64,000 nucleotides of DNA, taken from NCBI GenBank assembly GCA_963843755.1, contig CAWJLS010000010.1:289067-353066 (forward strand), given 5' to 3'. This DNA is from an uncultured Acidobacteriota bacterium (lineage in GTDB: Bacteria > Acidobacteriota > Thermoanaerobaculia > Multivoradales > DATKCC01). This document shows, in pieces, positions 5,094-28,401 of the stretch (the first letter of the stretch is position 1; the number at the start of each line of letters is the position of its first letter). The notes beneath the pieces are model-generated. The model was not told where the DNA came from. It made no database searches and was given only the letters and a program-made list of their open reading frames with translations. The position numbers and the translations under genes were made by a program.

Positions 5094-5543
5094 ATGGATG
5101 GCGCTGGACGCGGTGCGGCGGCCGCGGCGACGCCGGCTGTGAGCGGGGAACAGATCCACGAGGAGCACCTCCACCTGCGCGCGCTGCTCGAACGGATCGC
5201 GGGCACGCGGGGGCTGGTGCCGCTGCTGGAGCTGCTGGGAGAGCTGGGTGCCGCGCTCGAGGCCCATTTCGCGCACGAGGAGGCCCCCGGCGGCCTCCAG
5301 GACGTCGTCGGTTCTTCGGCGCCGCACCTGCTCGAGCGGGTCGACGTCCTGTTCGACGAGCACCGCCAGTGCCTCGCAGAGCTGGAGCGTCTGCGGAGCG
5401 CCGCCCGGGCGGCCCTGGACGGGCCGGTGGCCGAGGTGCTCGCGGGGGTGGACGATCTCTGCCGCATGCTCCACGACCACGAGGCGGCGGAGACGGAGAT
5501 CCTCTCCGGCTCGCTCTACGACGAGCTCGGAGGGAGCGGCTAG
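5094..5543 (+). CDS. hemerythrin-like (HHE cation-binding) domain protein
   Basis: The C-terminal 130 aa carry H/E-rich four-helix motifs (IHEEHLHL, HFAHEE, DEHRQ, HDHEAAE). ATG 5094 has GGAG 7 nt upstream. The longer ORF start at 4893 encodes S/T/R/P-rich sequence that is unlikely to be real. Confidence 0.6.
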   Translation: MDGAGRGAAAAATPAVSGEQIHEEHLHLRALLERIAGTRGLVPLLELLGELGAALEAHFAHEEAPGGLQDVVGSSAPHLLERVDVLFDEHRQCLAELERLRSAARAALDGPVAEVLAGVDDLCRMLHDHEAAETEILSGSLYDELGGSG

Positions 5544-5649
5544 GGCTTCCCACGGGGACGCGGGAAGCAGAGCCCGGAGCCGGAACCGCACGCGGCCGAC
5601 GGGCCTCTCAACAGAGGAAGGCGAGACGAGACATCAGGTTGGAGACGCG

Positions 5650-7653
5650 ATGAGCAAGAAACCACAAACCACCTCCACTTCGACCCCGGCGAGCGGCGCG
5701 ACCGCCACGGCGGTCGCCCCCACCGAGCGCACGGTCCTCGATCAGTCGATCGTCGAGATCGTCAGCGACTCCGGCGAGGGTGCCCAGAAGGCCGGGCAGA
5801 CGTTCGGCACGGTCGGCGCCAAGATGGGCAACGGCGTCTGGACCGTCGAGATCATCCCGGCCGAGATCAAGCCGCCCGCCCGCTCGCGCGCCGGCGCCTC
5901 CGGCATCCGCGTCCGCCTCGGCTCGCAGCCGGTGACCAACATGGGCGACGAGGCCGACCTGGTGGTCGCCTTCAACGAGCAGGTGCTCTACGGGCGGATC
6001 GCCCAGGGCGCGTACCGGCAGGGGACGGTGGTGCTGCTCGAGTCCAAGTGGGCCGACGACCCGCAGGAGGAGATCCGGCGGCAGTACGCCGAGGCGCTCG
6101 AGGAGCTCCATGCCGAGGGGCTGGACGTGCGCGAGCTGCGGCTCGAGGACGCCTGCAAGGAGGTGGTCGACAACCCGCGCCTGGGCAAGAACATGTTCGT
6201 GCTCGGCCTGCTCTGCCAGATCTACGGCCGCGACCTCCAGAAGGCGCTCGACGAGGTCCAGGTGGTGTTCGGCCGCAAGGGCGAGAAGGTGGTCGAGATC
6301 AACCAGACGCTGGTGCGCGCCGGCTGGGAGTACGCCGCCGAGCAGCTCACCGACCTGGCGTTCGAGATCCCGCCGTGGGAGAACGACCGGCCGCTGGTGG
6401 TGATGAACGGCAACCAGGCCGCCGGTCTCGGCGTCATGGCCGCCGGCATGGAGCTGGTCTCCATGTACCCGATCACCCCGGCGACTTCGGTCTCCCACTA
6501 CCTGGCGCGCGGCTTCCCGCGGGTCGGCGGCGTCGTCCACCAGGCGGAGGACGAGATCGCCGCGATCGGCTTCGCCATCGGCGCCAGCTACGCCGGCAAG
6601 ACCGCCTGCACCGTGACCTCCGGCCCGGGCCTGGCGCTCAAGACCGAGTTCATGGGGCTGGCCGTCATGGCCGAGGTGCCGCTGGTGGTGATCCTGGTCC
6701 AGCGCGGCGGTCCGTCGACCGGCCTGCCGACCAAGGTGGAGCAGGGCGACCTGATGGCCGCGCTCTACGGCGCCACCGGCGACGCCCCGAAGGTGGTGGT
6801 GGCACCGGCGACGATCGAGGAGTGCTACCACTTCGTGCCCATGGCCCGGAAGCTGGCCGAGGACTTCCGCACGCCGGTGATCGTCCTGACCGACACCAAC
6901 CTGGCGACCGGCGTGGCGCCCTTCCCGCGCCCCGAGGTCTCGACCGAGACCATGGCGGCGCCGCTCGACCTGTCGCCCTGGCCGGACGGGCTGGCGCCGT
7001 ACGACTGGGACGAGAAGACCGGCCTGTCGCCGCGGCCGATCCCGGGCCAGAAGGGCGGCGAGTACACCCTCACCGGCCTCGCCCACACCCGCTGGTCGAA
7101 GGTGGCCTACGACCCGGCCTCGAACCAGACCGGCTGTACCATGAGGAGCAGGAAGCTCGCCGCCCTGGCCAAGAGCCTGGTGCCGCCCGAGATCCACGGC
7201 GAGGACGAGGGCGACCTGCTGGTGGTCGGCTGGGGCTCGACCCTGGGCGCCATCGACGAGGCGGTCGAGAGGCTGCAGAAGAAGGGCCACAAGGTCTCGT
7301 CGGTCCACCTGCGCTTCCTGTCGCCGCTCGAGCCCGGCCTGCCGGAGATCTTCGGGCGCTTCGGCAAGGTGATGACGATCGAGATCAACTACAGCGACCG
7401 CCCCGGCGATCCGCTGATCGATTCCGAGACCCGCCGCCACGCCCAGCTCGCCGCCCTGCTGCGGCAGAAGACCCTGCTGGACATCGACAGTTGGAGCGTC
7501 GTCGAGGGGCAGCCCCTGGCGCCGCGGGTGATCGAGGAGGTGCTCCTCGCCCGGCTCGAAGGGCGCGAGGACGCCCCGCTCGAACAGGCTCCGCGCGAGC
7601 AGGCACCGACGAAAGACGAGCAGGAAGAAGGAGAGATGGCATGTTCGGTCTGA
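5650..7653 (+). CDS. korA: 2-oxoglutarate/2-oxoacid:ferredoxin oxidoreductase subunit alpha (fused gamma+alpha domains)
   Basis: MSKKPQT...VSDSGEGAQKAGQTFG (gamma-type domain) followed by MYPITPATSVSHYL...SGPGLALKTEFMGLA...QRGGPSTGLPTK, typical of KorA-type OFORs. RBS GGAGA lies upstream of ATG 5650. The first 134 codons of ORF-track entry 5248..7653 are upstream read-through. Confidence 0.9.
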   Translation: MSKKPQTTSTSTPASGATATAVAPTERTVLDQSIVEIVSDSGEGAQKAGQTFGTVGAKMGNGVWTVEIIPAEIKPPARSRAGASGIRVRLGSQPVTNMGDEADLVVAFNEQVLYGRIAQGAYRQGTVVLLESKWADDPQEEIRRQYAEALEELHAEGLDVRELRLEDACKEVVDNPRLGKNMFVLGLLCQIYGRDLQKALDEVQVVFGRKGEKVVEINQTLVRAGWEYAAEQLTDLAFEIPPWENDRPLVVMNGNQAAGLGVMAAGMELVSMYPITPATSVSHYLARGFPRVGGVVHQAEDEIAAIGFAIGASYAGKTACTVTSGPGLALKTEFMGLAVMAEVPLVVILVQRGGPSTGLPTKVEQGDLMAALYGATGDAPKVVVAPATIEECYHFVPMARKLAEDFRTPVIVLTDTNLATGVAPFPRPEVSTETMAAPLDLSPWPDGLAPYDWDEKTGLSPRPIPGQKGGEYTLTGLAHTRWSKVAYDPASNQTGCTMRSRKLAALAKSLVPPEIHGEDEGDLLVVGWGSTLGAIDEAVERLQKKGHKVSSVHLRFLSPLEPGLPEIFGRFGKVMTIEINYSDRPGDPLIDSETRRHAQLAALLRQKTLLDIDSWSVVEGQPLAPRVIEEVLLARLEGREDAPLEQAPREQAPTKDEQEEGEMACSV

Positions 7654-8594: not shown

Positions 8595-8609
8595 CCGAGC
8601 GAGGGAGCG

Positions 8610-11072
8610 ATGACCGTGAATCCGAAGTCGAACGAATCACCGCGGACCGCCGGAGCCGGCGACGACGCCCGCCGGGAGCTGCGCCGGTTCTTCCTGCTCG
8701 GGCCCGCCGAGCCTGCCGAAGCCGGCGAGCCCCGCGTGAGCGAAACGCCCGCCGTCGTCCCCGTCCCGCTGGCCGCCTTCGTCGGCGCCGGCCGGGTGCG
8801 GACCGACTACCCCCTCTACCTCGGGTCCACGGCACCGACCGGGTCGCTCGAGGCGGCGACCGGCGCCCACGGCGCCCTCTGCTTGGGGTTCGACGAGCTG
8901 ATCTCCCGCGCCCGGCGCACCCTTGACGGCGAGGGGGCCCCGGTCGGGCAGATGCTCCGCGACAACCTGAAGCGCCTGGAAGGGCACCTGCTCGACCTGC
9001 TGGAGGCCGGCACGGCCACCGGCGACGCCCAGGAGGCGCTCCGCGCCGCCGGCGCCGCCATGGCCGAGGCGCTCGCGGCCGAGTCCGGCCTCGCCGAGGC
9101 CGACCGCGCCGCCCTGGTGGCGGACGTCGAGCGGCTCGCCGCCGCGCTGCCGCCGGCGGGCGACGGTCCGGGGTCGAGCCCGGCGCGCTTCCTGGCACCA
9201 CGGACCGGCGTCTCCCTCGACCTGCTCGGCCATGCCCTCCTCGCCGGCCGGCGGACCACCCGCGAAAGCTTCCTGCGCGAGGCTCGGGAGCTGGTCGACA
9301 AGGGGCGGGCGCTGATCGACGCCGACCGCCGCAAGCGTGCCGACGGCGATGCCGGGCGCGACGGCGAGCGCGAGCGCGGCGCCATGGGCGCGATGGGCAA
9401 GCGGTTCGTCGACCCGTCGGCGCTGGCGTCCGTCCTCGGCGAGCGGCGCGGCACCACGGCGCTCGCGCCTGCGCGGCGCGAGCGCCTCGAGGCGGCGATC
9501 GAAGCCCTGGCCGAGGTCGCGGACCGGCTGGCCGAGGTCGCGGACCGGCTGGCCGCGCCGCGGATGCGGCTGATCCACGACGGCAGCCTGCCCTGGGGCG
9601 AGCGCCTGCTCGGGGCCGCGGAGTCAGACAACTGGGTCGTGGTCGAGAGCTCCGACCCGTGCGCGGCCGCCGCGGAGGTCTTCGACCGGGAGGCCGAGGC
9701 CCTGGCCGCCGCGCTGCGCGGTCGCGAGCGGGTCCGGCTCGAGACCTCGGGCACCTACGTGGCGGCGGACCACGAACCGTGGCTCGAGCGGCTGGCCGGC
9801 TTCGACTGGCGGGCGTTCGACGCCGGCGAGGCGGCGCTGCTCGAGCCGACGGTGGCGCTCGAGTCCGCCGGCGAGCTGGCCGAGCGGGGAATGCTCAGCC
9901 TGTCGAAGCTGCTGCGCTCGAGTCGTCCGGTGCAGGTGCTGGTCGCCCTCGATCCGGCCATGAGCCCCGGGGTCGAGAATCCGGCGGCCGGCTACCGCTT
10001 CGAGCCCGGCTACCTCGGCATGAGCCACCGGGAGGCGTTCGTCCAGCAGTCGAGCGAGGCCCGGCCGCTCCACCTGATGGAGGGCCTGGTGCGTGCCGCG
10101 TCGTCCAGCCGGACGAGCCTGCACGTGGTGGCCCCCTGGCCCGGACAGGTCGAGGCCGGTCTGGACCCGGCTCTCGTCGCCGGCGCCGCCATCGATGGCC
10201 GCGCCCACCCCCTCTTCCGCTACGACCCCGAGACCGGCCCCTCCTGGGCTCACCGGCTCGACTTCTCGGGCAACCCGCAGCCGGCGGCCGACTGGCCGAC
10301 CGACGACGGGGCGGACGAGAGCCCGTTCACCTTCGCCGACTTCGCCCTGCTCGATCCGGCGCTCCGGCGCCATGTGACGCCGATCGGCCCCGGAGCGGCC
10401 GACGACGCCGACCTGGTGCCGATCGCCGCCTGGCTCGCCCTGCCGGTCGACGAGGCGATCCACAAGATCCCGACCGTCCTGGCCGTGCCGGTGACGGCGC
10501 TCGGCAACGGGAGCAAGGGCCCCAAGGGTGGCCAGACGGCCCCGGCCGAGCCCGTCCGCCTGGCCGTCTCCCGGCCGCTGGCCGCCGCCTGCCGCGACCG
10601 GCTCGGCTTCTGGCGCACCCTCCAGGAGCTCGCCGGGGTCAACAGCGAGTACGTCCGCCGGGCCGCCCAGGCGACCCGCGAGGAGGCCGAACAGGCCGCC
10701 CGCGCCGAGCGCGAGCGCCTGGAGGCGGCCCATGCGGCCGAGCTCGAGCGGGTCCGCGAGCGGTCCGCCCGCGAGGCGGTCGACCGGCTGACCGCGGCCC
10801 TTCTGGAGGTCGACCTCGGCCTGTTCAGCGAGCTGCCGCCGGAGATTCCGTCGTTGGCCGGCAAGACCGCCGACCAGGTCGCCGCGGCGCTGATGGATGC
10901 GGTCGGCTCTGATCTGGCGGAGATGGCCGAGACCGTCGAGACGATAGCCGCCGGCGACGGCGCGCCGTCGTCCGAGGCGGTCGATGCCGCTGCCCGGCAG
11001 TTGCTGGAGCTGGTCGATCCGGCCGCGATCGATCGTGAGTTGACGGACAGCCTGGAGCACACCACGGAGTAG
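8610..11072 (+). CDS. PFOR C-terminal (TPP-domain plus tail)-like paralog lacking cofactor motifs; function unknown
   Basis: 820-aa ORF with RBS GAGGGAG and strong GC3 bias. Residues about 400-700 align by eye to the neighbouring PFOR. Example: FDWRAFDAGEAALLEPTVALESAGELAERGMLSLSKLLRSSRPVQVLVALD versus PFOR FDWRDFSDDEFRLCPPVVVIGGDGAMLDIGFQNVSRLLASGKPLRVIVLD. Also AIDGRAHPLFRYDPETG..LDFSGNPQPAADWPT versus ALEGRAFPYLEYDPDAG..LSLEGNPAVEDTWPT. The GDG...N TPP motif and the Cys ligands are absent. Confidence 0.7.
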   Translation: MTVNPKSNESPRTAGAGDDARRELRRFFLLGPAEPAEAGEPRVSETPAVVPVPLAAFVGAGRVRTDYPLYLGSTAPTGSLEAATGAHGALCLGFDELISRARRTLDGEGAPVGQMLRDNLKRLEGHLLDLLEAGTATGDAQEALRAAGAAMAEALAAESGLAEADRAALVADVERLAAALPPAGDGPGSSPARFLAPRTGVSLDLLGHALLAGRRTTRESFLREARELVDKGRALIDADRRKRADGDAGRDGERERGAMGAMGKRFVDPSALASVLGERRGTTALAPARRERLEAAIEALAEVADRLAEVADRLAAPRMRLIHDGSLPWGERLLGAAESDNWVVVESSDPCAAAAEVFDREAEALAAALRGRERVRLETSGTYVAADHEPWLERLAGFDWRAFDAGEAALLEPTVALESAGELAERGMLSLSKLLRSSRPVQVLVALDPAMSPGVENPAAGYRFEPGYLGMSHREAFVQQSSEARPLHLMEGLVRAASSSRTSLHVVAPWPGQVEAGLDPALVAGAAIDGRAHPLFRYDPETGPSWAHRLDFSGNPQPAADWPTDDGADESPFTFADFALLDPALRRHVTPIGPGAADDADLVPIAAWLALPVDEAIHKIPTVLAVPVTALGNGSKGPKGGQTAPAEPVRLAVSRPLAAACRDRLGFWRTLQELAGVNSEYVRRAAQATREEAEQAARAERERLEAAHAAELERVRERSAREAVDRLTAALLEVDLGLFSELPPEIPSLAGKTADQVAAALMDAVGSDLAEMAETVETIAAGDGAPSSEAVDAAARQLLELVDPAAIDRELTDSLEHTTE
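9507..9548 (+). repeat. perfect 21-bp in-frame tandem duplication (2 copies plus a 6-nt partial third) inside the 820-aa gene
   Basis: ctggccgaggtcgcggaccgg occurs at 9507-9527 and again at 9528-9548, encoding LAEVADR LAEVADR. Confidence 0.9.
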
Positions 11073-11090
11073 ACAACGCGACGCCCGGCC

Positions 11091-11114: not shown

Positions 11115-11139
11115 GATGGCGATGCGAGGAGTCATCGAG

Positions 11140-14100
11140 ATGAAGGTCACCGAAGAACGCGAACAAGCCGAAGCCACCGTCCGGTACCCGGGAACCCCCG
11201 TTGCCATGGACGGCACCGCCGCGGTGGTCGCCATGGAGACCGCCGCCGGCGAGGCGGCCGGCGCCTACCCGATCACCCCGTCGACCCAGATGGGCGAGGG
11301 CTGGGCGAAGGCCGCCGCCCAGGGGACGCCGAACGTCAACGGGCGCCGGTTGATCTTCTTCGAGCCCGAGGGCGAGCATGCCGCGGCCGGCGTCACGGCG
11401 GGCATGTCGATGGTCGGCCTGCGCTCGACCAACTTCTCCTCCGGCCAGGGCATCGCCTACATGCACGAGTCGCTGTACGCGGCGGTCGGCAAGCGCCTGA
11501 CCTACGTGCTCAACATGGCCTGCCGGGCGATGACCAAGCATGCGCTCAACGTCCATGCCGGGCACGACGACTACCACGCGATCGACGACACCGGCTTCTT
11601 CCAGCTCTTCGCCAAGGACGCCCAGGAGGCCGCCGACCTCAACCTGATCGCCCACCGGATCGCCGAGCTGTCGCTCAACCCGGGCGTCTGCGCCCAGGAC
11701 GGCTTCCTGACCAGCCACGTCATCGAGTCGCTGCTGCTGCCCGAGCGCGCCCTGGTCAAGGAGTACCTGGGCGACCCGTCCGACCTGATCGAGTCGCCGA
11801 CGCCGGCCCAGCGCCTGGTCTTCGGCGAGACCCGGCGGCGCATCCCGGAGATGTTCGACCTGGACAACCCGGCGATGATCGGCGTGGTCCAGAACCAGGA
11901 CAGCTACGCCCAGGGCGTCGCCTCCCAGCGGCCGTTCTTCTTCGACCACATCGCCGCGCTCGCCGAGACGGCGATGGCCGAGTACGCTGAGCTCACCGGC
12001 CGGCGCTACCGCCGGGCCATGGGCTACCGGCTGCGCGACGCCGAGGTGGTGCTGGTCGGCCAGGGCTCGGTGGTCGGCAACGCCGAGGCGGTGGCCGATC
12101 ATCTGCGGGCGACTCGCGACCTCGCGATCGGCGTGCTCAACCTGACCATGTTCCGGCCGTTCCCGGCCGACCTGGTGGCCGGGATGCTGGCCGGCAAGCG
12201 CGCCGTGCTGGTGCTCGAGCGCCTCGACCAGCCGCTCGCTTCCGACCCGCCGCTGCTGCGCGAGATCCGCACGGCGCTGTCCAAGGCGGTCGAGAACCAC
12301 CGGGTCGAGGCGGGGCGGACGCCCCACGCCGGCATCCCGGCGGTGGCGCCGGACCAGGTACCGGACTTCTACTCCGGCTGCTTCGGCATGGGCAGCCGCG
12401 ACCTCCAGGCCGGCGACCTGGTGGCGGCGGTCGAGAACATGCTCCCGGGCGGAAGGGGACGGCGCCAGTTCTACCTGGGCGTCGAGTTCATCCGCAAGGG
12501 CAAGGTCCCGGCGAAGCTCGAGGAGTGGCAGCAGAAGGTGCTCGAGGCCTACCCCGACGTCGCCGACCTGGCGCTCGAGCCCGCGGGCGCCCTCGACCTG
12601 CTGCCCAAAGACTCCATGGCCGTGCGCATCCACTCCGTCGGCGGCTGGGGCGCCATCACCATGGGCAAGAACCTGACCATGACCTTGTTCGACCTGGTCG
12701 GGCTCAACGTCAAGTCGAACCCCAAGTACGGCTCGGAGAAGAAGGGGCAGCCGACCACCTTCTATAGCGTCTTCTCCCACGATCCGATCCGGATCAACTG
12801 CGAGCTCAAGCACGTCGACGTGGTGCTCTCGCCCGATCCCAACGTCTTCCGCCACTCGAACCCGCTCGCCGGGCTCGCCGAGGAGGGCACGTTCGTCATC
12901 CAGGCGAGCACGTCCTCGGAGAGCGGCGCCGAAGAGCTCTGGGCGAGCTTCCCGGCCTGGGCGCGCCGGACGATCCGCGACAAGAAGCTGCGCGTCTTCT
13001 ACCTCGATGCGTTCGCCATCGCCCGCGCCGAGACCGACGCCGCGGACCTGCAGTTCCGCATGCAGGGCAACGCTTTCCAGGGTGCCTTCTTCAAGGCCTC
13101 GCCGCTGATGCAGAGCGAGGGCCTGGACGAGGCCAAGCTGTTCGACGCGGTCCGCGCCCAGCTCCAGAAGAAGTTCGGCCACCGGGGCAAGACCATCGTC
13201 GACGACAACTTCCGGGTGCTCCGCCGCGGCTTCGACGAGCTGCGGGAGCTCGACTGGAAGGAGCTGGAGATGGGCTCCCAGGTCGATGAGGAGAAGGGCG
13301 AGATCAAGCCGCCCTGGTATCTCGACCGGGTGCCCCAGGATGCCGACGAGCTGACCGGCATCGCCGACCCCTTCCGGTTCATGCACCAGGTCTGCTCGGT
13401 CTACCGCGACGGCGCCGACCCGATCGCCGATCCGTACTCGGCGATCTCGGCGATCCCGGCGGCCACCGGCATCTTCCGGGACATGACCAACATTCGCTTC
13501 GAGGTGCCGGAGTTCATCGCCGAAAAGTGCACCGGCTGTGGCCAGTGCTGGACTCAGTGCCCGGACGCGGCGATCCCCGGACTGGTGATCGAGGTGGAGA
13601 AGGTTCTGCGGGCCGCGGTCTCCGACTGGGCGACCGACGGCGCCGCCAGCGACCGCATGCTCTCCGCCGTCGCGCCGCTGGCCCGTGAGGCCCGGGTGCT
13701 GCTCAAGCAGGAGGACTTCCCGTCGTTCGCCGCGGTGGTCACCCGTGCCTGGCCCAAGGTGGCCGGCGGCTTCGACCTGTCCGCCGAGGAGCGCGCGGCC
13801 CTGGACGAGGAGATCGACCAGGTCACCGCCCGCCTGGCGGAGTTCCCGCTCGCCAAGACGGTGCCGTTCTTCACCGTGCCGGAGCGCCAGAGCGAAGGCA
13901 GCGGCGGCCTGTTGGCCGTGACCATCAACCCGAACGCCTGCAAGGGCTGCAACCTGTGCGTCGAGGTCTGCCCGGACGACGCCCTCTACGCGGCCCACCA
14001 GGACCAGCCGCTGGTGGACAAGCTGCGCCGCAACTGGGCGCGCTGGGAGCAGCTCCCGGACACCCCGGACCGCTTCCTCCAGGTGAGCAACCTGGACGAA

Positions 14101-16204: not shown

Positions 16205-16375
16205 TCGCCATGCGCACTCCAGAGACACGAGATCGCGGGCGGGGGCGTCCCCTTCCCCCCGCGAGGGTGGGAAGGGGATCGAGGGGATGGGGGGCGATCC
16301 AGCCGATGCTCAAGGTTGATGGCTGCCCCTCGCTGGTCGTGGGAGCTTCATCAGGCGAAGCGGGGGTGTGATGCC

Positions 16376-17266: not shown

Positions 17267-20200
17267 GAACGGCGCGCTGGACGATGTGAAAGGGGTCGCG
17301 CGCGGCCTCTACGAGAAGCTGATCGGTGTCAAGCCCGAGCCGGCGGACCCCGGCGTCGCCGCGATCGACACCGGCTCCGGGGCCGTGGCCCGCACCGAGG
17401 CGGCGATCGCCCGCCTGGCCGGTGGCGCGGCCGGTCTCACCGATCCGTCCGGATCGTCGCCCAGGGCTCGACCGGCTCGGACGACGCTGCGGCCGTCTAC
17501 GAGCAGCACCGCGCCGCGACCGGCGGGGCGGCTGTCGTCCTCGAGCGGCCGGGGCTCCCTGGCCGCGGCCGTCGGCCTGGCGTCCGCGGGGATGCGGGCG
17601 ACCGCGTTCCTCTCCGGCCCCGAGCTGGTCGCGGCGGCTGACGCTGCTGGCCTCCGCCGTCGAACCGGCGTCTGCCCCTGGTCGTCCACCTGGACGACCG
17701 GGCAACCGGCGCGTGGGCGGCTCCCGGGGCGCGCTCGAGGCCGCACGGCTCCGGCGCCGTCGTGCTGCTGGCCCGCGACGTCCAGGAGGCGGTCGACCTG
17801 ACCGTCGCCGGCCGGCGCGTGGCCGAGGACGCTCTCCTGCCGGTGGTGGTGACGATCGACGGGGCGGAGACCGCCGCCTCGGTCCAGGACCTGCTGCTGC
17901 CGACGGATGCTCTGCTGCGCTCGTACCTGGGGCGGCCGCGGACATGATCCACCCGCTGACCCGTGCCCAGGAGATGCTCTTCGGCCGCCACCGCCGGCGC
18001 CTGCCCAAGTGGCACGACCCGGCCCGGCCGCTGACCACCGGCACCCTCCACGGCCCGGAGTCGGCGCCGCTCGCGGCCGCGGGCCGCAGCGCCTACCTGG
18101 ACGCCGAGGTGCCGGCCCTGCTCGAGACGGCGCTGGCCGAGCTGGCCCGCCGCACCGGCCGGTCGCTCGAACCGGTCACCGGCCACCGCACCGGCGGGGC
18201 CAAGATCGTCCTGGTCGCCGCGGGCGCGGCGGTCGGCACCGCCGAGGCGGCGGCGGACGGTCTGCGCAAGGAAGGGCTCAAGGTCGGCGTGGTCGGCCTG
18301 CGCAGCCTGGCGCCCCTGCCCGCCTCGCGACTGACGATGCTGCTCGCGGCGCCTGGCGCCGTGGCGGTGCTCGAACGCTCTGCCGGAGCCCTCGGCGGGG
18401 CGAGCGGTTCGGGGGGGCCGGCGGCGACACGGCGCCCCTGATCACCCGGCTGCGCGCCCTCCTGGCCGGCAGCACCGCCGGGGGCGGACCGCGGCTCGTC
18501 TCCGCCCTCTACGGCCTGGGCGGGGCGCCGCTGTGCGGGGCCGACCTGGTGCAGCTCGGCCGGTCGCTGGCCAAGGAGTCGATGCAGGCCTCGTCGTCCA
18601 GGGGGGGGGCGAGGGAGCGCAAGGGGACGGACCAGGCCCTGCCCTCGCCGCTCTTCCTCGGCGTCTCGTTCGCCGGTGACGCCTCGTTTCCCAAGCAGGA
18701 GGTGCTGCTCGACGCCCTGCGCCAGAGCTACCCGGACGCGGCCCGGCTCGGGCTGCGCGGAGCCGGCCCGGTCGACCTGCGGCCGGAGGGCACCGCCGTG
18801 GTCGCCGTCCATCGCCTGGCCGGCGAGGGCGCGGGGATCGCCGCCGACGCGGCCCGGCTGCTTCACGCGACGGCCCTCGCCAAGCACGGCGGGCGGGTGG
18901 CGGCCTACCCGGGGCTCACCTGGGAGCGCTGGGCGGCGCCGGCGGCCGACCGGCTCCAGATCGCCTCCGGCGGTCACCGGGACCGGGGCGGCGCACTGGC
19001 CGACCCGGGCGCCGACGCGCCGGTCGACCTGAGCCTCTGGGCGAGCCCGTCCACTGCGCCGGCCCGCGCCCTGGTCGAGCACCTGGCGGACGGTGCCGCG
19101 CTGATCGTTCCCCGGCGGCTCGGTTCCGCGGCCGGTGCCGCCTCCGACCTGACCGACTGGTGGACCGACCTGCCCGAGGCGGTGCGCACGGCCGTCGCGA
19201 CGAAGGGTGTCCACCTCTACGTGATCGAGATCGAGGCGGAGGCCGCCCTGACCGCGCCGGGCTCTCCGGCTGCGGGCACGGACTCCCTGCTCCTGGGCGC
19301 CCTCCTGGGGGCGCTCCGGGCCGAGGGGCGGTTCGAGGTCAAGGACCGCAAGCTCCTGGAAGCCTTCCGCGCTCTACAGTCCGTCCGCCCGTCGGACGAG
19401 GGGGCCGGCGAGGAAGCAGAACGGCGGTTCCAGACCGGTCTCGAGCGGGTCCGCCGGCTGACCCCGGCCGATCTCTCGGTGCGCCGCCGTCCGGCGCCCG
19501 AGCCCGACCCGGTGCCGGCCGCGGTCCGCCGCCTGGTGACCGCCGGCGCGGCGACCGGAGGGGGACGGGGCCCCCTGCGCGGGGCGCCCGAGACGGTCGA
19601 CAGCCTGCCCCGGTTCTGGGACCAGGTCGGCGTGCTCTACCGCCGGGGCGACGAGGCGCGGCTGACGCCGGACCCCTATCTGGCGACCGGTGCCGTGCCG
19701 GCGCTGGCCGGGTCGCTGCGCCAGGTCGACCGCGGCCGGAGCGTGCTGCCGGCCTTCGAGCCGGCCCTGTGCACCGGCTGTGGGGAGTGCTGGAGCGCCT
19801 GCCCGGACGGGGCGATCGCCCCGGTGGTCCTCGGCGCCGGCCAGCTCCTCGACCAGGCCATGGCGCGGGCGCGCCGGGCCGGCAAGTCGGTCGACGCCCT
19901 GCGCATGGCGGCCTCCAAGATCGCCGCCGGCGTCAACCAGGAGCTGGCCTCCCGGGTCGACACCGAGGCGGGCGGCGATGCCGCGGAGCTGTTCGCCACC
20001 GCGTTCGAGAAGACTCTGGCCAAGATGCCCCTGCCGGACGAGCGCAAGGCCGCGCTGACCGAGGCGTTCGCCGCCGTGCGGGACGAGCTCGAAGGGCTGC
20101 CCGTCTCCCGGACGGCGCCGTTCTTCGGTGCGCCCGAAGGGGAGGTGAAGGGGACCGGCGAGCTGCTCCTGCTGGCGATCGATCCGGACGCCTGCAAGGG

Positions 20201-21884
20201 CTGCGGCGTCTGCGTGGCGGCGTGCGAGCCGGAGGCGCTCCGGACGGCTGCCGACTCGGCCGACCGCACCCGTGCCGCCCGCGCCCTCTGGCGGCGGCTC
20301 GAGGAGCTGCCCGAGGCGAGCCCCGAGACCGTCGGGCGCGCTCGCCTCAGCGAGGACGTGGGTCCGCTCGCCGGAGCCCTGCTGGCCAAGGCCTCCCGCG
20401 AGGTGGTCGCCGCGGCCGACGGCGCCGAGCCCGGATCGGGCGCGACGCTCGCCGTGCGCCAGGCCCTGGCGGCGGCCGCCTACCACCTGACGGTCGCCCC
20501 CGAGGCGGCCCGCCCGGCCCGCCTGGCCGCGATCGATGCCCTGCGCGAGGAGCTCGCCGGGGCGATCCACGACGGCCTCGCCCGGGCGTTGCCCGACCGC
20601 GACCTCGACGCCCTGGCCCTGGGCCTGGGCACGCTCCAGCGCCCCGAGGCCGATCTCGCGGAGCTGACCTCCCGGGTCGAAGGCGCCCTCGAAGGCGACC
20701 GGGTCGACGTGGCCCGCCTGCGCCGGCTGGTCGATGCCGCCCGCCGTCTGGCCGACCTGCGGTTCCGCCTGGGTGGCTCCGAGGCGGAGGAGGGCCGTCC
20801 CGGGTCCGGCTCCGGGCCCGCACCGCTCAGTCTCGTCCTGGCCGGCCGCGTGGCGGCCTGGGGCGGGGCGTTCCCGTACACCCCGTTCGCGGTGCCGGTG
20901 AGCGTCGACGCCACCGGCGACGCCGTCGGCGTCGCCCGCGGTCTGCTCGAGGGCGGCCTGGCCGAGACGGTCGAGCTGGCGCGGGCCGAGCGCCGGGCGC
21001 GCATCGAGCTCGCCGCCAGGACCCCGTCCGAGGCGGCGAAGGCCGCCGACGAGGTCCGCCGCCTGGCCGATCTCTCCTGGCGCGACCTGGACGCGGCGGA
21101 GCGTGCGCTCTGCCCGCCGGTCGTGGTGGTGGCGAGCGAGGACGAGCTCCTGGCCGACGATCCGGGCGGTCTGGCCGACCTGCTGGCTGGCGACCTGCCG
21201 GTCAAGGTCGTGCTGCTCACTCCGCACTCGGACGTCTCGACCGATCGCTCCGGTCGCGGGCCCCACTGGCCCCACTGGTTGACTTGGGCCGGCCACCCGA
21301 ACGCCGTGGTGGCCCAGAGCTCGGTCGGCGCGGGCGATCACCTGGAGGCCGCGACCGCCGCCGCCCTGGCGTTCGACGGCCCGGCGCTGCTGCGGGTGCA
21401 CGCGCCGGAGCCCTCGCGGGGCGGCTTCGCGGCCGACAAAACCCTCGGGCAGGCCCGGGAGGCGGTGGCGACGCGGGCCTTCCCGCTGTTCGTCAGCCGG
21501 CCCGGCTCGGCTTTACGAGATGGGCGAGATGGGCGGGACGGGGCGGACGGGCTGCCGACCCTCGACCTCTCCGGCAACCCGGAGGCCGACCCCCCGGACG
21601 ATTCCGCGGCCGTGCGCGCCTGGCGGCTGCTCCGTCACCGGGCCGGTGCCGACGAGGCGTTCGCCGCCGCGGCGGCCGCCGCCGACGAGAGCGCGCGGGC
21701 CGAGCAGGAGCGACGGGATCACGAGCAGGAGATCGCCGCGCTCCGCGCTGACTACGAGCAGCGCCTCGCCGACGCCCGAGCCACGACCCAGGTGGAGATG
21801 GCGCGGCGGGTGCGCAACAAGCTCCTCGCCGTGGCGGCCCACCGGGCGGAGTCCGGTGCGCAGTCGGCGGAGGAGCGGCGATGA
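17259..21884 (+). pseudogene. full-length PFOR paralog with lost catalytic motifs; its first 1.2 kb is broken by at least 5 frame changes
   Basis: Collinear with the PFOR at 11140-16204 across all domains. Homologous segments sit in different frames: 17259-~17450 (frame of 17259), ~17450-17553 (-1 shift), ~17555-17640, ~17667-17932, 17932-18417, then 18420-21884 as one uninterrupted frame. Three junctions (17553, 17930, 18415) fall clearly in G-runs (GGGG, GGGG, GGGGGGG). The ferredoxin motifs are retained (CTGCGECWSACP, CKGCGVCVAACE). TPP and proximal-cluster motifs are lost (AADGAEPGSGATL for GGDGSCMGCGEKT; VVVVASEDELLADD for VVVIGGDGAMLDIG). The start overlaps the rnfB stop by 8 nt and the stop overlaps the rnfC ATG (ATGA). 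Confidence 0.75.
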
Positions 21885-23320
21885 ACGTCATCCAGCCCAG
21901 CTTCCGCCACGGCATCCATCCGCGCGAGCACAAGGAGGCGACCGAGCACCTGCCGATCGCCCGGATGCCGTTCGTCCCGCTCTACGTCCTGCCGCTCTCG
22001 CAGCACACCGGCGCTCCCTGCAAGCCGGTGGTGCAGGCCGGCGACCGGGTCGAGCGGGGGCAGGTCGTCGCCGAGGCGGGCGGGTTCGTCTCCATGACGC
22101 TCCACGCCCCGGTCACCGGGGTCGTCAGCGCCGTCGGCCAGCGCACCCATCCGTCGGGGCGGCTCGCACCCGCGATCGAGATCGAGGCGGACCCGTTCTC
22201 GACCCAGGAGATCGTCCCCCAGCGGCCGGCCGGCGCGCCGGCGCCGGAGGAGCTCTCCACCGACCAGTTCGTCGCCGAGATCCAGCGCGCCGGCCTGGTC
22301 GGCATGGGCGGGGCGGCCTTCCCGACCCACGTCAAGTACAAGCCGCCCGAGGGCAAGGTGGTGCGCCGCCTGGTGCTCAACGGCTGCGAGTGCGAGCCGT
22401 TCCTGACCAGCGACCACCGGGTGATGGTCGAGCGCCCCGAGGCGATCATCCGCGGCGCCGAGATCGTCGCCCGCCACCTGGGGGTCGAGGAGGTGGTGAT
22501 CGGCGTCGAGCTCAACAAGCCGGACGCGATCCGGGTGCTCCATGAGGCCGTCGACGCCCGTCCTCCCCTGGTGCTCCAGGCCCCGTCCGCCGGCAGGTCC
22601 GGCGCCGACTCGCCCAAGACCGTGCCGATCCGGGTCGTGCCGCTCAAGGTCAAGTACCCCCAGGGCGCCGAGAAGATGCTCATCCGGGCGATCTACGGCG
22701 AGGAGGTGCCGTCCGGCGGCCTGCCCCTCGACGTGGGCGCGGTGGTCAACAACGTCGGCACCATGGCGGCCGTGGCCGACTGGTTCGACCGCGGGATTCC
22801 GCTGATCGAGCGCATCGTCACCGTCGCCGGCCCGGGCATCGAGCGGCCGGCCAACCTGCTGGTCCCCGTCGGCACGCCGGTGCGCGCCGTGCTCGACCAC
22901 TGCGGTCTCGACCACGACACCCGCGAGGTGGTCATGGGCGGGCCGATGATGGGGCAGCCGCTGGCCAGCCTCGACGTGCCGGTGCTCAAGGGCACCTCCG
23001 GGCTGCTCGCCTTCACCGAGACCGAGACCCTGGTGCCGCGGGAGTACACCTGCATCAAGTGCGGCCGCTGTGTCGAGGCGTGCCCGCAGTTCCTCAACCC
23101 GTCGCGCCTGGCGAAGCTCGCCCGGGCCGGCCGGTGGGAGGACATCGAGGCCTACTCGGTGATGGACTGCGTCGAGTGCGGATCGTGTAGCTACTCTTGC
23201 CCCTCCGGCATCCCCATCGTCCAGCTCATCCGGGTCGCCAAGTCGAGCCTGCGCGAGCAGAAGGCGAAGGAGAAGGCGGAGCGGGCGCGGGTGGCCGAGG
23301 CGGCGGAGAAGGCCTCGTAG
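21881..23320 (+). CDS. rnfC: Rnf electron transport complex subunit C
   Basis: GLVGMGGAAFPTHVKY, LNGCECEPFLTSDHR, and two 4Fe-4S motifs CIKCGRCVEACP and CVECGSCSYSCP. Confidence 0.92.
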   Translation: MNVIQPSFRHGIHPREHKEATEHLPIARMPFVPLYVLPLSQHTGAPCKPVVQAGDRVERGQVVAEAGGFVSMTLHAPVTGVVSAVGQRTHPSGRLAPAIEIEADPFSTQEIVPQRPAGAPAPEELSTDQFVAEIQRAGLVGMGGAAFPTHVKYKPPEGKVVRRLVLNGCECEPFLTSDHRVMVERPEAIIRGAEIVARHLGVEEVVIGVELNKPDAIRVLHEAVDARPPLVLQAPSAGRSGADSPKTVPIRVVPLKVKYPQGAEKMLIRAIYGEEVPSGGLPLDVGAVVNNVGTMAAVADWFDRGIPLIERIVTVAGPGIERPANLLVPVGTPVRAVLDHCGLDHDTREVVMGGPMMGQPLASLDVPVLKGTSGLLAFTETETLVPREYTCIKCGRCVEACPQFLNPSRLAKLARAGRWEDIEAYSVMDCVECGSCSYSCPSGIPIVQLIRVAKSSLREQKAKEKAERARVAEAAEKAS

Positions 23321-23442
23321 CCCGGCCGGAACGCCGGAATGGACGACTCGAACCATGGTTTCGGGGTGGCAGGGGGGATTGGGGATGTCGATGGACGGAG
23401 AGCGGATGTCGTGGCTGGGCTCAGGGCCGGGGAGGTGCGCCG

Positions 23443-24504
23443 ATGAGCGCCCGTGAGCCCCGCCTGCTGGTGCAGACCTCGCCCTTCCTGCGCGAGGGGG
23501 TGACCACTCCCGGGCTGATGGGCGACGTGCTGATCGCCGTCCTGCCGGTGTTCGCCGTGTCGCTCTGGGTGTTCGGCCTGTCGTCGCTGCTGGTGGTGAC
23601 GGCGGCGACCGCCGGCGCGGTCGGCACGGAGTGGCTGTTCACCAAGCCGCCGCGGTCCGTCACCGGACAGCGAGGCCGGCGCGGCGAGAGCCTGAAGAAC
23701 GGCAGCGCCCTGCTCACCGGCGTGCTCCTGGGACTGACCCTGCCGCCCGCCTTCCCGCTCTGGATGGCGGTGATCGGCGGCGCGGTCGGTATCGCCCTGG
23801 GCAAGCTGATCTGGGGCGGCCTGGGCAACAACCTGTTCAACCCGGCGCTGGTCGGCCGCGCCTTCCTCCAGGCCGCGTTCCCGATCGCCATCACCACCTG
23901 GGCGCCCCCCGGCGGCCGGCTGACGGTGCACGCCTCGAACCTGACCCCGCCGTTCATGCACCCCGCCGCGGACGCGGTCACCGCCGCGACACCGCTCAAC
24001 CTGATGAAGTTCGAGCACCACGCGACCGCCCTCGGCCAGCTCTTCGGCGGCCAGGTCGCCGGCTCCCTGGGGGAGACCAGCGCGGCGGCGATCCTGCTCG
24101 GCCTCGCCTGGCTGATCGCGCGCCGGGCCTGCGACTGGCGCATCCCGGTGAGCATCCTGGGGACGGTGGCGGTCTTCACCAGCGTGCTCTGGGCGATCTC
24201 GCCGGACCGCTACGCGTCGCCGCTGTTCATGCTCATGTCGGGCGGGCTGCTGTTCGGCACCACCTACATGGCGACCGACCCGGTGACCTCGCCGCTGGCG
24301 CCGCGCGGCGCCTGGATCTTCGGCGCCGGCATCGGCGTGCTGGTGGTGCTGATCCGCACCTGGGGCGGCCTGCCCGAAGGTGTGATGTACGCCATCCTGC
24401 TGATGAACTCGGCGACGCCGCTGATCGAACGCGCCACCCAGCCGCGGGCGTTCGGTCACGGCCGGCCGGCGAAGGGCGCGGGCCAGGGAGGGGGCAAGTC
24501 ATGA
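23443..24504 (+). CDS. rnfD: Rnf electron transport complex subunit D
   Basis: Polytopic membrane protein with ...NLFNPALVGRAFL...TGATPL-like...FGTTYMATDPVTSP (FMN attachment region). ATG 23443 has GGAGG 8 nt upstream. Confidence 0.92.
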   Translation: MSAREPRLLVQTSPFLREGVTTPGLMGDVLIAVLPVFAVSLWVFGLSSLLVVTAATAGAVGTEWLFTKPPRSVTGQRGRRGESLKNGSALLTGVLLGLTLPPAFPLWMAVIGGAVGIALGKLIWGGLGNNLFNPALVGRAFLQAAFPIAITTWAPPGGRLTVHASNLTPPFMHPAADAVTAATPLNLMKFEHHATALGQLFGGQVAGSLGETSAAAILLGLAWLIARRACDWRIPVSILGTVAVFTSVLWAISPDRYASPLFMLMSGGLLFGTTYMATDPVTSPLAPRGAWIFGAGIGVLVVLIRTWGGLPEGVMYAILLMNSATPLIERATQPRAFGHGRPAKGAGQGGGKS

Positions 24505-25289
24505 GCGAGATCGGCCAGGAGACCGGCCACGAGACCGCCAGCGCGACCGGCCATGACTCCGCCAAGGCGGCCGGAGAGCGGCGCGGGTTCCAGATGCCGG
24601 AGACGCCGCGCCTCGTGCTCACTCTCTGCCTGGCGGGGCTGCTGTCGGGGCTGACCATCGTCGGCGCCTACCGGCTGACCCTGCCGGTCATCCAGGAGAA
24701 CCACGCCCGGGCGTTGCGCGAGGCGGTGTTCGAGGTGGTGCCCGGCTCGGAGCGGATGCAGCGGCTGGTGATCGAGGGCGAGGGCGCCGCCGCGCACCTG
24801 GTGCCCGCCGCCGGCGTGCTCGGCGAGGAGCCGTCCGTCTACGGCGCCTATGCCGCCGACGGCCACTTCGTCGGCTACGCCATCCCGGCCGAAGGGCCCG
24901 GCTTCCAGGACACGATCCGGCTGATCTACGGCTTCGACCCGGGCAAGCAGAGGATCGTCGGCATGTCGGTGCTCGAGAGCCGGGAGACCCCGGGCCTGGG
25001 CGACCGGATCTACAAGGACCAGAGCTTCGTCGACCAGTTCGACGACCTGGCGGTGGCGCCGCCGGTGCAGCTCGTCAAGGAGACGCCGACCTCGCCGAAC
25101 CAGGTGGATGCGATCACCGGTGCCACGATCTCGTCGACGGCGGTGGTCAACATCGTCCGGCGGAGCAACGAGACGTGGCTGGACAAGCTGCCGCCGGCGG
25201 ACCAGGCTCCGGCGCTGACGGAGACGCCCCCGGCGGGCGACGGCGCGACGACGGACAAGGGCGGTCCGATCCCGGGAGGCAAGTCGTGA
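24501..25289 (+). CDS. rnfG: Rnf electron transport complex subunit G (FMN-binding)
   Basis: N-terminal TM, ...ETPGLGDRI...VDAITGATISSTAV. ATGA overlap with the rnfD stop. Confidence 0.9.
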   Translation: MSEIGQETGHETASATGHDSAKAAGERRGFQMPETPRLVLTLCLAGLLSGLTIVGAYRLTLPVIQENHARALREAVFEVVPGSERMQRLVIEGEGAAAHLVPAAGVLGEEPSVYGAYAADGHFVGYAIPAEGPGFQDTIRLIYGFDPGKQRIVGMSVLESRETPGLGDRIYKDQSFVDQFDDLAVAPPVQLVKETPTSPNQVDAITGATISSTAVVNIVRRSNETWLDKLPPADQAPALTETPPAGDGATTDKGGPIPGGKS

Positions 25290-25336
25290 GAGAGAGGGGA
25301 GCGAGAGTGGACGTCGAGACGCGGGAGGAGAGGTAG

Positions 25337-26011
25337 ATGGCGGCACCCGGCAAAGAGCCCGGCGAAGTCTACGCGGAGTTCGTCAAGGGGCTGTGGAAAG
25401 AGAACCCGGTCTTCGTCCAGGTGCTCGGCATGTGCCCGTCCCTGGCGGTGACCAACTCGGCCATCAACGGGATGGCCATGGGCGGGGCGACGCTGTTCGT
25501 GCTGGTCATGTCGTCGCTTCTCGTCTCGTTGCTGCGCAACTGGATTCCGAAGGCGGTCCGGATCTCCACCTACATCATCGTCATCGCCACCTTCGTCACC
25601 GTGGCGGACTTCACCCTCCAGGCGGTGGCGCCGGCGGTCCACCGGGAGCTCGGCGCGTTCATCTCCCTGATCGTGGTCAACTGCGTGATCCTCGGCCGGC
25701 AGGAGGCGTTCGCGGCCAAGAACCGGGTGGGCCTGGCGGTGGTCGACGCGCTCGGCATGGGCGGCGGTTTCGCCTTCGCCCTGATCCTCCTGGGCGCGGC
25801 CCGCGAGATCCTCGGCAAGGGGTCGCTGTTCGGCGTCTCGCTGTTCGGCGCGTCGTACGAGCCCTGGGTCGTGATGATCCTGCCGCCGGGCGGCTTCCTC
25901 ATGCTGGGCGTGATCCTGCTGGTCTTCGCCTCGGTCGCCGAAGGGCGCAAGAAGCTGGCCGCCAAGGCGAGCGGCGACTCCACCGCGAGCGAGAAGGAGG
26001 AGGCAGCCTGA
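25337..26011 (+). CDS. rnfE: Rnf electron transport complex subunit E
   Basis: GLWKENPVFVQVLGMCPSLAVT...SLIVVNCVILGRQEAFA, typical of the RnfE/NqrD family. Confidence 0.92.
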   Translation: MAAPGKEPGEVYAEFVKGLWKENPVFVQVLGMCPSLAVTNSAINGMAMGGATLFVLVMSSLLVSLLRNWIPKAVRISTYIIVIATFVTVADFTLQAVAPAVHRELGAFISLIVVNCVILGRQEAFAAKNRVGLAVVDALGMGGGFAFALILLGAAREILGKGSLFGVSLFGASYEPWVVMILPPGGFLMLGVILLVFASVAEGRKKLAAKASGDSTASEKEEAA

Positions 26012-26601
26012 TGGCGAACCTGAGCACGCTGGCCTGGATCTTCATCTCGGCGCTCCTGGTCAACAACTTCACGCTCTCCTACTTTCTCGGCCTGTGCCCG
26101 TTCTTCGGCGTGTCGGGCAAGCTGGTGACGGCGTTCCGGCTGGGGCTGGCGAACATCTTCGTCATGCTGATCACGTCGTTCTCGGCCTGGGTGCTGGACA
26201 CCTTCGTCCTGGTCCACGCGCCGTACCTCCAACTGATCAGCTTCATCGTCGTGATCGCCTCGACGGTGCAGTTCGTCGAGATGGTGATCCGCAAGCTCTC
26301 TCCGGCGCTCTTCCGGGCGCTCGGCATTTTCCTGCCGCTGATCACGACCAACTGCGCGATCCTGGCGCTGGCGCTGTTCCAGACCAGCCGGGGCTACGGG
26401 CTGATCCAGGGCCTGGTGTTCTCCCTCGGCGCCGGCATGGGGCTGACGCTGGCTCTCGTGCTGATGGCGGGTCTGCGGGAGGAGGCGGAGCTCTCGGACA
26501 TCCCGAGCCTGATCCGGGGGACGGCGATGAACCTGCTCATCGCCGGGATCTTGTCGCTGGCGTTCATGGGGTTCGCCGGCCTGTTCAGCCCGACCTCGTG
26601 A
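26011..26601 (+). CDS. rnfA: Rnf electron transport complex subunit A
   Basis: LVNNFTLSYFLGLCPFFGVS...GIFLPLITTNCAILALAL, RnfA/NqrE family. TGATG overlap with rnfE. Confidence 0.92.
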   Translation: MANLSTLAWIFISALLVNNFTLSYFLGLCPFFGVSGKLVTAFRLGLANIFVMLITSFSAWVLDTFVLVHAPYLQLISFIVVIASTVQFVEMVIRKLSPALFRALGIFLPLITTNCAILALALFQTSRGYGLIQGLVFSLGAGMGLTLALVLMAGLREEAELSDIPSLIRGTAMNLLIAGILSLAFMGFAGLFSPTS

Positions 26602-28350: not shown

Positions 28351-28401
28351 GAGTGTGACTCCGTTCACGCGACGATCATACCAAAGTATGCAGACACCGC
28401 T

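Follow-up and report, generated by a model that had tools for sequence, protein, structure and literature searches.

Results

Gene content of the cluster

The window analysed here is a stretch of 64,000 nucleotides (nt) from an uncultured Acidobacteriota bacterium (GenBank assembly GCA_963843755.1, contig CAWJLS010000010.1, positions 289,067 to 353,066). The system in question is a gene cluster within it that encodes 2-oxoacid:ferredoxin oxidoreductases together with an Rnf complex. Two proteins of this cluster are homologues of pyruvate:ferredoxin oxidoreductase (PFOR) that have very probably lost their cofactor sites: the rnf-embedded paralog of about 1,500 amino acids (aa), here named PARA, and the 820-aa protein encoded after korB, here named p820. 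The G+C content of the window is 72%, at which spurious long open reading frames (ORFs) are common, and the reading frames therefore had to be verified by homology. The verified features of the cluster are listed below with the evidence for each.

5094-5543, + strand: hemerythrin-like protein (ORF 4893-5543, start uncertain); PF01814, E 9.7e-9
5650-7653, + strand: KorA, 2-oxoacid:ferredoxin oxidoreductase alpha subunit with domains III-I-II fused; POR and POR_N, TIGR03710
7641-8594, + strand: KorB, catalytic beta subunit with the thiamine diphosphate (ThDP) diphosphate-binding domain and one [4Fe-4S] cluster; TPP_enzyme_C and PFO_beta_C
8610-11072, + strand: p820, PFOR homologue, probably cofactor-less, that corresponds to the C-terminal two-thirds of the enzyme; BLASTP, hhalign, structure model
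11116-16204, + strand: giant PFOR (~1,690 aa), predicted to be catalytic, with a C-terminal Fer4_13 single-cluster ferredoxin; Pfam domains
16376-17266, + strand: RnfB of the long polyferredoxin type; PF04060 FeS and Fer4, TIGR01944 at 80.4 bits (cut-off 68.7)
17259-21884, + strand: PARA, full-length PFOR paralog, domains I-VI and an 82-residue terminal helix; profile, structure model, motif counts
21881-23320, + strand: RnfC; TIGR01945 at 509.9 bits (cut-off 246)
23443-24504, + strand: RnfD; PF03116, E 7.5e-104
24501-25289, + strand: RnfG; PF04205 FMN_bind, E 1.1e-16
25337-26011, + strand: RnfE; PF02508, E 1e-62
26011-26601, + strand: RnfA; PF02508, E 1.3e-51
26601-26842, + strand: small one-helix Cys-rich protein (MHDLAAIALLAAACGGWVALQRW...CSGC...), like the gene after rnfA in relatives

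An earlier note on this DNA, made from the letters alone, had described this order on one strand from the hemerythrin-like gene to rnfA, with tight junctions and a complete Rnf operon, and all of this was borne out. The genes overlap by 13, 8, 4, 4 and 1 nt at five junctions, among them korA/korB (13 nt), rnfB/PARA (8 nt) and the PARA stop with rnfC (4 nt), and the only wider gaps are those at 16.2-16.4 kb and 23.3-23.4 kb. All six Rnf core subunits are encoded together, RnfB and RnfC being recognised above the NCBIfam cut-offs and RnfD, G, E and A by Pfam, and RnfBCDGEA is predicted to be a complete ion-translocating ferredoxin:NAD+ oxidoreductase.

KorAB and the giant PFOR

KorA scored 521.5 bits against TIGR03710 (cut-off 482.75), and its closest solved relative is the Magnetococcus marinus OGOR (6n2n_A, E 5.8e-83). 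In KorB the CPSC, GCSS, GDGD and CPTY motifs were all intact when aligned to StOFOR (5b48_B, E 1e-50). Its score against TIGR02177 was 236.7 bits, below the cut-off of 261.9, and specificity for 2-oxoglutarate may be indicated by the context, the sucCD genes in the operon of nine loci. As judged from these motifs, KorAB is a working two-subunit enzyme of the OGOR type with one [4Fe-4S] cluster and no ferredoxin domain of its own. A single cluster and the absence of a ferredoxin domain characterise this enzyme type in the solved structures of MmOGOR and StOFOR, and an external Fe-S partner is therefore needed. The window KorAB has the fused alpha subunit and single-cluster beta subunit in common with MmOGOR (6N2N) and StOFOR (5B46/5B48); those enzymes use free ferredoxin, whereas here korAB is followed by PFOR-derived Fe-S or adaptor proteins and Rnf in one operon.

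The body of the giant PFOR matched POR_N, PFOR_II, POR, two Fer4 and TPP_enzyme_C, and its tail matched Fer4_13 (E 4.9e-8). It aligned to the M. thermoacetica PFOR with an E-value of 9.4e-79, and every cofactor motif was intact: YPITPS, the catalytic Glu and GCSS are kept, all four cysteines of the proximal cluster are present, as they are in KorB, and the GDG...N motif, in full GDG-x(24-27)-N, is found in four of four giant PFORs. The giant PFOR with its tethered single-cluster ferredoxin is thus predicted to be an additional catalytic enzyme in the lineage of the window. In relatives it is encoded by single ORFs of 1,684-1,710 aa, and a 94%-identical giant PFOR (P0152) and more than 100 others are likewise single ORFs with the PF13370 tail. 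The family is large, with 5,894 matches at E<1e-50, of which the top 120 are all about 1,530-1,760 aa and mostly 1,650-1,750 aa. Giant PFORs with the Fer4_13 tail, of about 1,650-1,750 aa, carry the NCBI label '2-oxoacid:acceptor oxidoreductase family protein'.

Cofactor sites of PARA and p820

That both paralogs are related to PFOR, as the earlier note had claimed, was confirmed by profile and structure comparisons with the D. africanus and M. thermoacetica enzymes, which gave significant similarity for each. A profile of the PARA family (42 sequences) aligned to the M. thermoacetica PFOR 6cin with an E-value of 2e-68, and the five aligned segments together span domains I, II, III, V and VI. 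The AlphaFold2 (AF2) model of the intact 1,154-aa part of the window PARA had a predicted local distance difference test score (pLDDT) of 78.7 and a predicted template modelling score (pTM) of 0.80; its best Foldseek matches were the M. thermoacetica PFOR 6ciq (E 1.5e-21) and the D. africanus PFOR (E 2.5e-18) over about 1,070 columns. In relatives PARA is a single ORF of 1,479-1,529 aa.

For p820 neither Pfam nor NCBIfam gave a match, and the relationship emerged from other comparisons. BLASTP matched it to residues 1153-1508 of the giant PFOR (E 2e-27), hhalign aligned it to the PARA family at probability 100 from a domain-IV-like 'RFWDQVG' region to the end, and the AF2 model (pLDDT 82.9) matched the M. 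thermoacetica PFOR 6cio best (E 1.4e-7) through a domain-VI-like core, which also matched the beta subunit of oxalate oxidoreductase and PorB. The protein is built of a domain-IV-like part, degenerate domains V and VI and a helical tail, and domain I is absent. Four further proteins (P0028-P0031), longer than p820 and shorter than PARA at about 1,300 aa, have PFOR_II, in one case together with Fer4_13, and match p820 at 34-40% identity; they may be intermediates in evolution or represent a third kind of degenerate protein.

Motifs were counted in 42 diverse PARA sequences and in 57 members of the p820 family, with four giant PFORs as the cofactor-complete reference and positions numbered after the giant PFOR of the window. 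In PARA the proximal-cluster cysteines are lost, C1020 being replaced by E in 40/42 and C1023 by S in 40/42, C1136 by S, T or R, and C1340 by S in 33/42. In 39/42 the 'VYSNTGGQ' loop, and with it the half of the ThDP motif that contains the N, is deleted, and the glycines that flank the GDG Asp are lost. In domain I the catalytic Glu87 is replaced by P, G or A, and YPITPST by G-A-S-F-P-A-D. All eight cysteines of both ferredoxin motifs in domain V are kept in 41-42 of the 42 sequences, and the window copy has Fer4 matches there, as expected from the earlier note, in which retention of both CxxCxxCxxxC motifs had been claimed for the paralog inside the rnf operon. In the p820 family both of these domain-V motifs are deleted, the four proximal cysteines have become L/F, Y, L and L/T, and in 54/57 Ala stands in place of the GDG Asp.

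The loss of GDG...N and of the proximal cysteines, first claimed for the two window proteins, hence extends across the 42 PARA and 57 p820 family members, and proper alignment did not bring the cofactor ligands back. It is very probable that PARA and p820 are PFOR pseudoenzymes, and with neither a ThDP site nor a proximal cluster they would be unable to catalyse 2-oxoacid chemistry. PARA has the domain order, the fold and the two-cluster domain V of canonical homodimeric PFOR (D. africanus 1B0P, M. thermoacetica 6CIN) and p820 has the fold of domain VI, but the ThDP GDG...N motif and the proximal cysteines are missing from both, and from PARA also the catalytic Glu and the YPITP loop. By descent both belong to the PFOR superfamily, but they lack three of its defining catalytic features, and a functional classification as PFORs would be wrong.

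Shared insert and C-terminal tails

Two features set the giant PFOR and its paralogs apart from canonical PFORs. A helical insert of about 130 aa inside domain V is common to PARA and the giant PFOR, and a C-terminal extension of about 200 aa ending in a long helix is found in PARA, p820 and the giant PFOR. The terminal helices are predicted from the AF2 models to be 55 residues long in p820 and 82 in PARA. Between the tails of p820 and the giant PFOR the similarity was clear (E 6e-18); between the tails of p820 and the window PARA pairwise BLASTP was not significant (E 0.011), the PARA tail being shortened in this clade. PARA and p820 are, on this evidence, predicted descendants of the giant-PFOR lineage, and the tails are alike because they are homologous. 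The similarity and the long helices that had been noted earlier therefore stand, but the co-assembly that had been suggested from them does not follow, since similarity alone is no proof of it. Retention of the tails after loss of the catalytic motifs suggests that they matter. A further tail, a C-terminal CxxCxxC single-cluster ferredoxin, is present in 54 of 64 members of the p820 family and absent in the lineage of the window.

The two paralogs also evolve faster than their neighbours. Compared with L001, a relative that is 77% identical to the window in DNA and served as the reference for indel and codon comparisons, PARA and p820 were 79-81% identical in amino acids and had a nonsynonymous/synonymous ratio of about 0.9, against 92-95% and about 0.5 for KorB, RnfB and the giant PFOR. 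Such rates would be expected of scaffold or wire proteins on which purifying selection still acts, though less strongly.

Conservation of the module

A scan of species-representative genomes confirmed a PARA relative in at least 372 of 599 candidate stretches, and gene order was counted in the best 80 species-level genome loci. The order korA-korB-p820-rnfB-PARA-rnfCDGEA recurs in most of these. It is identical to that of the window in the close relatives L001/L002 and L004, whereas the giant PFOR is absent from the Ca. Thiodiazotropha locus L007 and from L009, a metagenome-assembled genome (MAG) of Eisenbacteria, both of which have korA-korB-p820(+ferredoxin tail)-rnfB-PARA-rnfCDGEA. The Fer4_13 tail is thus on p820 where the giant PFOR is absent and on the giant PFOR where that is present, as in the window. 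Directly upstream of PARA lies rnfB (68/72 loci with enough flank) and downstream rnfC (57/67); p820 or a ferredoxin-tailed giant PFOR is found upstream in 46/53, and korAB in 41/53, with another four in which korAB lies beyond a giant PFOR at a greater distance upstream. Of all pairs rnfB and PARA are packed most tightly, overlapping by 8-17 nt, and PARA and rnfC overlap by 4 nt in the window, L001, L004, L007 and L009.

The carriers are Gammaproteobacteria, many of them sulfur oxidisers and symbionts, and Phycisphaerales, Myxococcales, Eisenbacteria and Acidobacteriota. They include Chromatiales, Sedimenticolaceae, Thiodiazotropha, Thiosymbion, Thiomargarita, Thiohalomonadaceae and Woeseiaceae, a tubeworm (Escarpia) symbiont, the cultured Thiorhodococcus mannitoliphagus and a Myxococcales MAG. 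An arrangement unique to this assembly is not what was found, and a chimeric contig could be ruled out, as independently assembled genomes of several phyla have the same order. Conservation of the module can be stated with very high confidence.

Some loci carry additional genes or a reduced set. The genes sucC-sucD for succinyl-CoA synthetase follow PARA directly in nine loci (L024, at 14684-17158, and L023, L032, L033, L043, L046, L069, L080 and L082), in six of them between PARA and rnfC; these are loci of Sedimenticolaceae-like bacteria and tubeworm-symbiont genomes. Their position inside the operon ties the module to the succinyl-CoA/2-oxoglutarate step. On a contig of 9.3 Mb (L091, 8001-19129) a Fer4_13-tailed giant PFOR precedes helix-turn-helix and AbiEii-like genes, after which come rnfB and a PARA-like gene of 1,317 aa; neither korAB nor p820 is present, and in this variant the giant PFOR may be the sole catalytic partner.

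A NuoF-like gene (Complex1_51K, SLBB and NADH_4Fe-4S, 415 aa) was seen a few hundred bases to about 1 kb 5′ of korA in a dozen gammaproteobacterial loci (L024, at 2109-3356, and L026, L032, L033, L043, L046, L048, L053, L062, L079, L081 and L082). It is not present in the window.

Frame breaks in the window

PARA had been described as a full-length PFOR paralog at 17259-21884. Its homology is full-length, but a single ORF it is not, the reading frame being broken within 17259-18440. Frame 0 has stops at 17799-17801 and 17850-17852, and in tblastn with the giant PFOR and intact relatives the homologous reading runs through frames 0/2/0/2/1/2/1/0. Selenocysteine or read-through at the in-frame stops was ruled out by this shifting among all three frames. 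Against the DNA of L001, nine indels of a length that is not a multiple of three were found, all of them in 17259-18440, and the remaining 3.4 kb are intact. The giant PFOR, previously called intact-looking, is so in its domains and motifs and not in the frame of its tail: frame 1 is used by the body, to about 15899, and frame 2 by the Fer4_13 tail (15938-16204), the change being one extra nucleotide relative to L001 near 15899, where the linker is rich in Ala and Pro. The small gene that follows rnfA changes frame at runs of G5/G6 near 26731-26746. Three genes within 11 kb thus carry frame-shifting indels, and the neighbouring genes are clean. A phase plot of G+C at third codon positions reproduced the switches in PARA and in the PFOR tail; elsewhere it did not distinguish gene boundaries from frameshifts.

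Codon comparison with L001 gave an amino acid identity of 0.80 and a nonsynonymous/synonymous ratio of 0.86 for the broken part of PARA, 0.79 and 0.88 for its intact part, and 0.81 and 0.90 for p820. Indels accumulating under neutrality should bring many extra substitutions, and none were seen, which argues against decay. Most likely the frame breaks are errors of assembly or consensus, or at most very recent, and the organism itself probably has unbroken genes. Some indel errors have probably remained in the assembly behind the window, and gene calls elsewhere in the window need care.

Neighbouring genes

The small gene that ends the cluster begins with an ATG that overlaps the stop of rnfA (TGATG). 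Genes of this type, encoding about 55-67 aa with the motif C-x-GW[VI]-x2-Q ... C-x(1-3)-C, were found in 14 loci of Gammaproteobacteria, Eisenbacteria and Acidobacteriota. Positions in relatives are as follows.

L007: from 18808, small gene after rnfA
L009: 18921-19100, small gene after rnfA
L012: from 18952, small gene after rnfA
L017: from 18895, small gene after rnfA
L024: from 21510, small gene after rnfA
L052: from 18985, small gene after rnfA

The product matched no Pfam family significantly, NqrM-like families included in the comparison; it may be a subunit specific to the module or a factor that helps to mature Fe-S clusters. At the other end, a hemerythrin gene lies 5′ of korA also in L001, L004, L009/L010 and L077 and in none of the gammaproteobacterial loci.

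Upstream of the cluster, positions 1407-4778 on the minus strand encode a protein of 1,123 aa with a weak match to Peptidase_MA_2 (E 7.3e-6, under the Pfam cut-off), and the position of this gene is conserved in L001/L002. Just past the cluster a type II toxin-antitoxin pair occupies 27767-28368 on the minus strand.

27767-28093, - strand: PemK/MazF-like toxin; E 3e-17
28084-28368, - strand: ribbon-helix-helix antitoxin; E 4.3e-8

An Rfam scan of the window gave no riboswitch and no other RNA family, and in a promoter and terminator scan of 15.5-28 kb the plus-strand signals were not above chance.

Discussion

The gene order around rnfB and PARA has been reported before. In the Solemya velum symbiont, Dmytrenko et al. 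2014 (PMC4287430) noted rnfB-[PFOR-like]-rnfCDGEA, regarded its product as a functional PFOR and suggested that pyruvate donates electrons to Rnf. Judged from the published gene order, that locus, which has the operon order of the window module, is almost certainly the same module as the gammaproteobacterial loci described here. The interpretation differs: PARA as analysed here has neither ThDP site nor proximal cluster, and KorAB stands alongside as the catalytic partner. Mitchell et al. 2024 (PMC11636981) found that a 'PFOR-like' gene of Endoriftia and the dimeric korAB fall together under sulfide limitation. The earlier suggestion that no such module had been described is consequently true in part only, as the rnfB-'PFOR'-rnfC order has been known since 2014; our literature searches found no paper that recognises that the cofactor sites are gone, that a second paralog exists, that KorAB is linked to the system or how widely the arrangement occurs. 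What is new here is an Rnf system with accessory proteins that appear to be PFOR-derived pseudoenzymes, beside KorAB; their physical wiring is inferred.

We put the probability that PARA and p820 serve as Fe-S adaptors, or a wire, between KorAB (or the giant PFOR) and Rnf at roughly 0.55, on the basis of gene order, translational coupling and the retained Fe-S motifs. PARA would dock on RnfB, the ferredoxin-side subunit of Rnf, and together with p820 and the tethered ferredoxin would form a fixed Fe-S path from Rnf to KorAB or the giant PFOR. Such a path would replace diffusible ferredoxin, so that electrons pass without free ferredoxin. In one direction the system would be an ion-gradient-driven, NADH-dependent synthase of 2-oxoglutarate (or pyruvate), in the reverse an energy-conserving replacement for 2-oxoglutarate dehydrogenase. 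The drop in expression in Endoriftia, if the genes are orthologous, would fit an energy-consuming anabolic role.

Other Rnf complexes also have lineage-specific input subunits. The MmcA cytochrome of Methanosarcina acetivorans and the large RnfB of the Desulfobacula toluolica (Tol2) type resemble the present system in that the operon encodes, besides a standard RnfCDGEA core, a redox protein at the ferredoxin side that is additional or enlarged. Here, in contrast, the accessory is a degenerate 2-oxoacid oxidoreductase of 1,500 aa, with a second degenerate paralog and a catalytic 2-oxoacid:ferredoxin oxidoreductase. In complex I, NuoG/Nqo3 has a molybdopterin oxidoreductase fold, has lost the catalytic cofactor and is an Fe-S scaffold in an ion-pumping complex. 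The likeness to PARA and p820, which may have been recruited as wire and scaffold in the same manner, is a functional analogy only, as fold and complex are unrelated.

Several observations weigh against the adaptor reading or the evidence below it. An acidic residue is found at the position of the GDG Asp in 35/42 PARA sequences, and Arg137 persists in 29/42, so that a residual or altered ligand site may remain. The motif counts rest on MAFFT columns, of which HMMER alignments to 6cin back only the Glu and the GDG/N regions. Loci of Thiomargarita and Thiotrichaceae have rnfB-PARA with neither korAB upstream nor rnfC downstream, and rnfC is also lacking downstream in L032, L033 and L043 of the tubeworm-symbiont type. 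Finally, nine indels packed into 1.2 kb are odd for random sequencing error.

In its strongest form the adaptor reading extends to one membrane-bound supercomplex of KorAB, p820 with its tethered ferredoxin, PARA and RnfBCDGEA, with SucCD in some lineages and the giant PFOR here alongside, in which ion-motive force would be coupled directly to the interconversion of succinyl-CoA + CO2 and 2-oxoglutarate with NAD(H), no free ferredoxin taking part. This can be put forward only tentatively. The two pseudoenzymes might instead be soluble, dedicated ferredoxins or adaptors of high molecular weight, p820 with its tail included, that dock transiently, form no stable supercomplex and shuttle electrons, with KorAB or the giant PFOR on one side and Rnf or other acceptors on the other, co-regulated through the operon. 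The retained Fe-S motifs would suit such carriers equally, as would the variable presence of korAB and rnfC beside rnfB-PARA in some lineages, the giant PFORs with the same ferredoxin tail that stand alone with no Rnf nearby (L090), and the sequences and models of PARA and p820, in which neither a transmembrane segment nor a clear membrane anchor was seen. The position of rnfB directly before PARA in nearly all loci, with overlapping stop and start codons, is however typical of stoichiometric subunits, and 1,500 aa would be a costly carrier for two clusters if there were no scaffold role. Transient docking is considered unlikely.

A new function of the former active-site cleft, in PARA, p820 or both, is improbable. 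The cleft would bind another ligand such as CoA, a 2-oxoacid, a nucleotide or a metal, and the protein would act as a sensor or regulator, as a protective cap for O2-sensitive clusters or as an enzyme of different chemistry. Conservation outside the lost motifs is strong, with for instance R109, D176, E186, D197, W762 and P781 of P0035 invariant, and the residual acidic residue and Arg137 would agree with a ligand site, as would the hemerythrin-like gene (of the O2/NO-binding type) at the head of the cluster in several phyla. Catalytic PFORs, however, have many of these conserved residues too, which look structural; the family alignments contain no new conserved Cys/His cluster or nucleotide-binding motif, the eight cysteines of domain V being the only ones conserved, and the Pfam model of the CoA-binding domain III, which still matches the giant PFOR, no longer matches PARA. 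Genuine decay in this organism, with only the C-terminal 1,100 aa of PARA being made or the module being lost, is very improbable, even though nine indels crowd into 1.2 kb of PARA against only two others in about 20 kb of neighbouring coding sequence, most of the indels lie outside obvious homopolymers, and the source annotation gives only a product of 1,100 aa (P0032). Set against this, the broken part of PARA is as conserved as the intact part, PARA still has its start codon and overlaps rnfB by 8 nt, the small gene is broken within runs of G, and the genes are intact in all relatives.

Hundreds of genomes label the rnf-embedded gene as pyruvate:ferredoxin oxidoreductase. With its ThDP motif lost PARA would not be a ThDP enzyme, and inferences drawn from that label, including the published ones of an active PFOR, therefore need to be revised, with KorAB as the catalytic partner. 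As far as sequences and predicted folds can tell, this would be a clear case in which evolution has reused a large enzyme to scaffold Fe-S clusters. A cultured carrier exists in Thiorhodococcus mannitoliphagus DSM 18266 (L055). If the wiring is true, it would be a new way of feeding Rnf, in which a CO2-fixing or decarboxylating step of the tricarboxylic acid cycle is coupled to an ion gradient, and it would bear on how low-potential electrons are made or used under oxygen in chemosynthetic symbionts, large sulfur bacteria and anaerobic or microaerobic Acidobacteriota. If the supercomplex is true as well, sulfur-oxidising symbionts and soil Acidobacteriota would own a hard-wired, reversible, energy-coupled '2-oxoglutarate:NAD+ oxidoreductase'.

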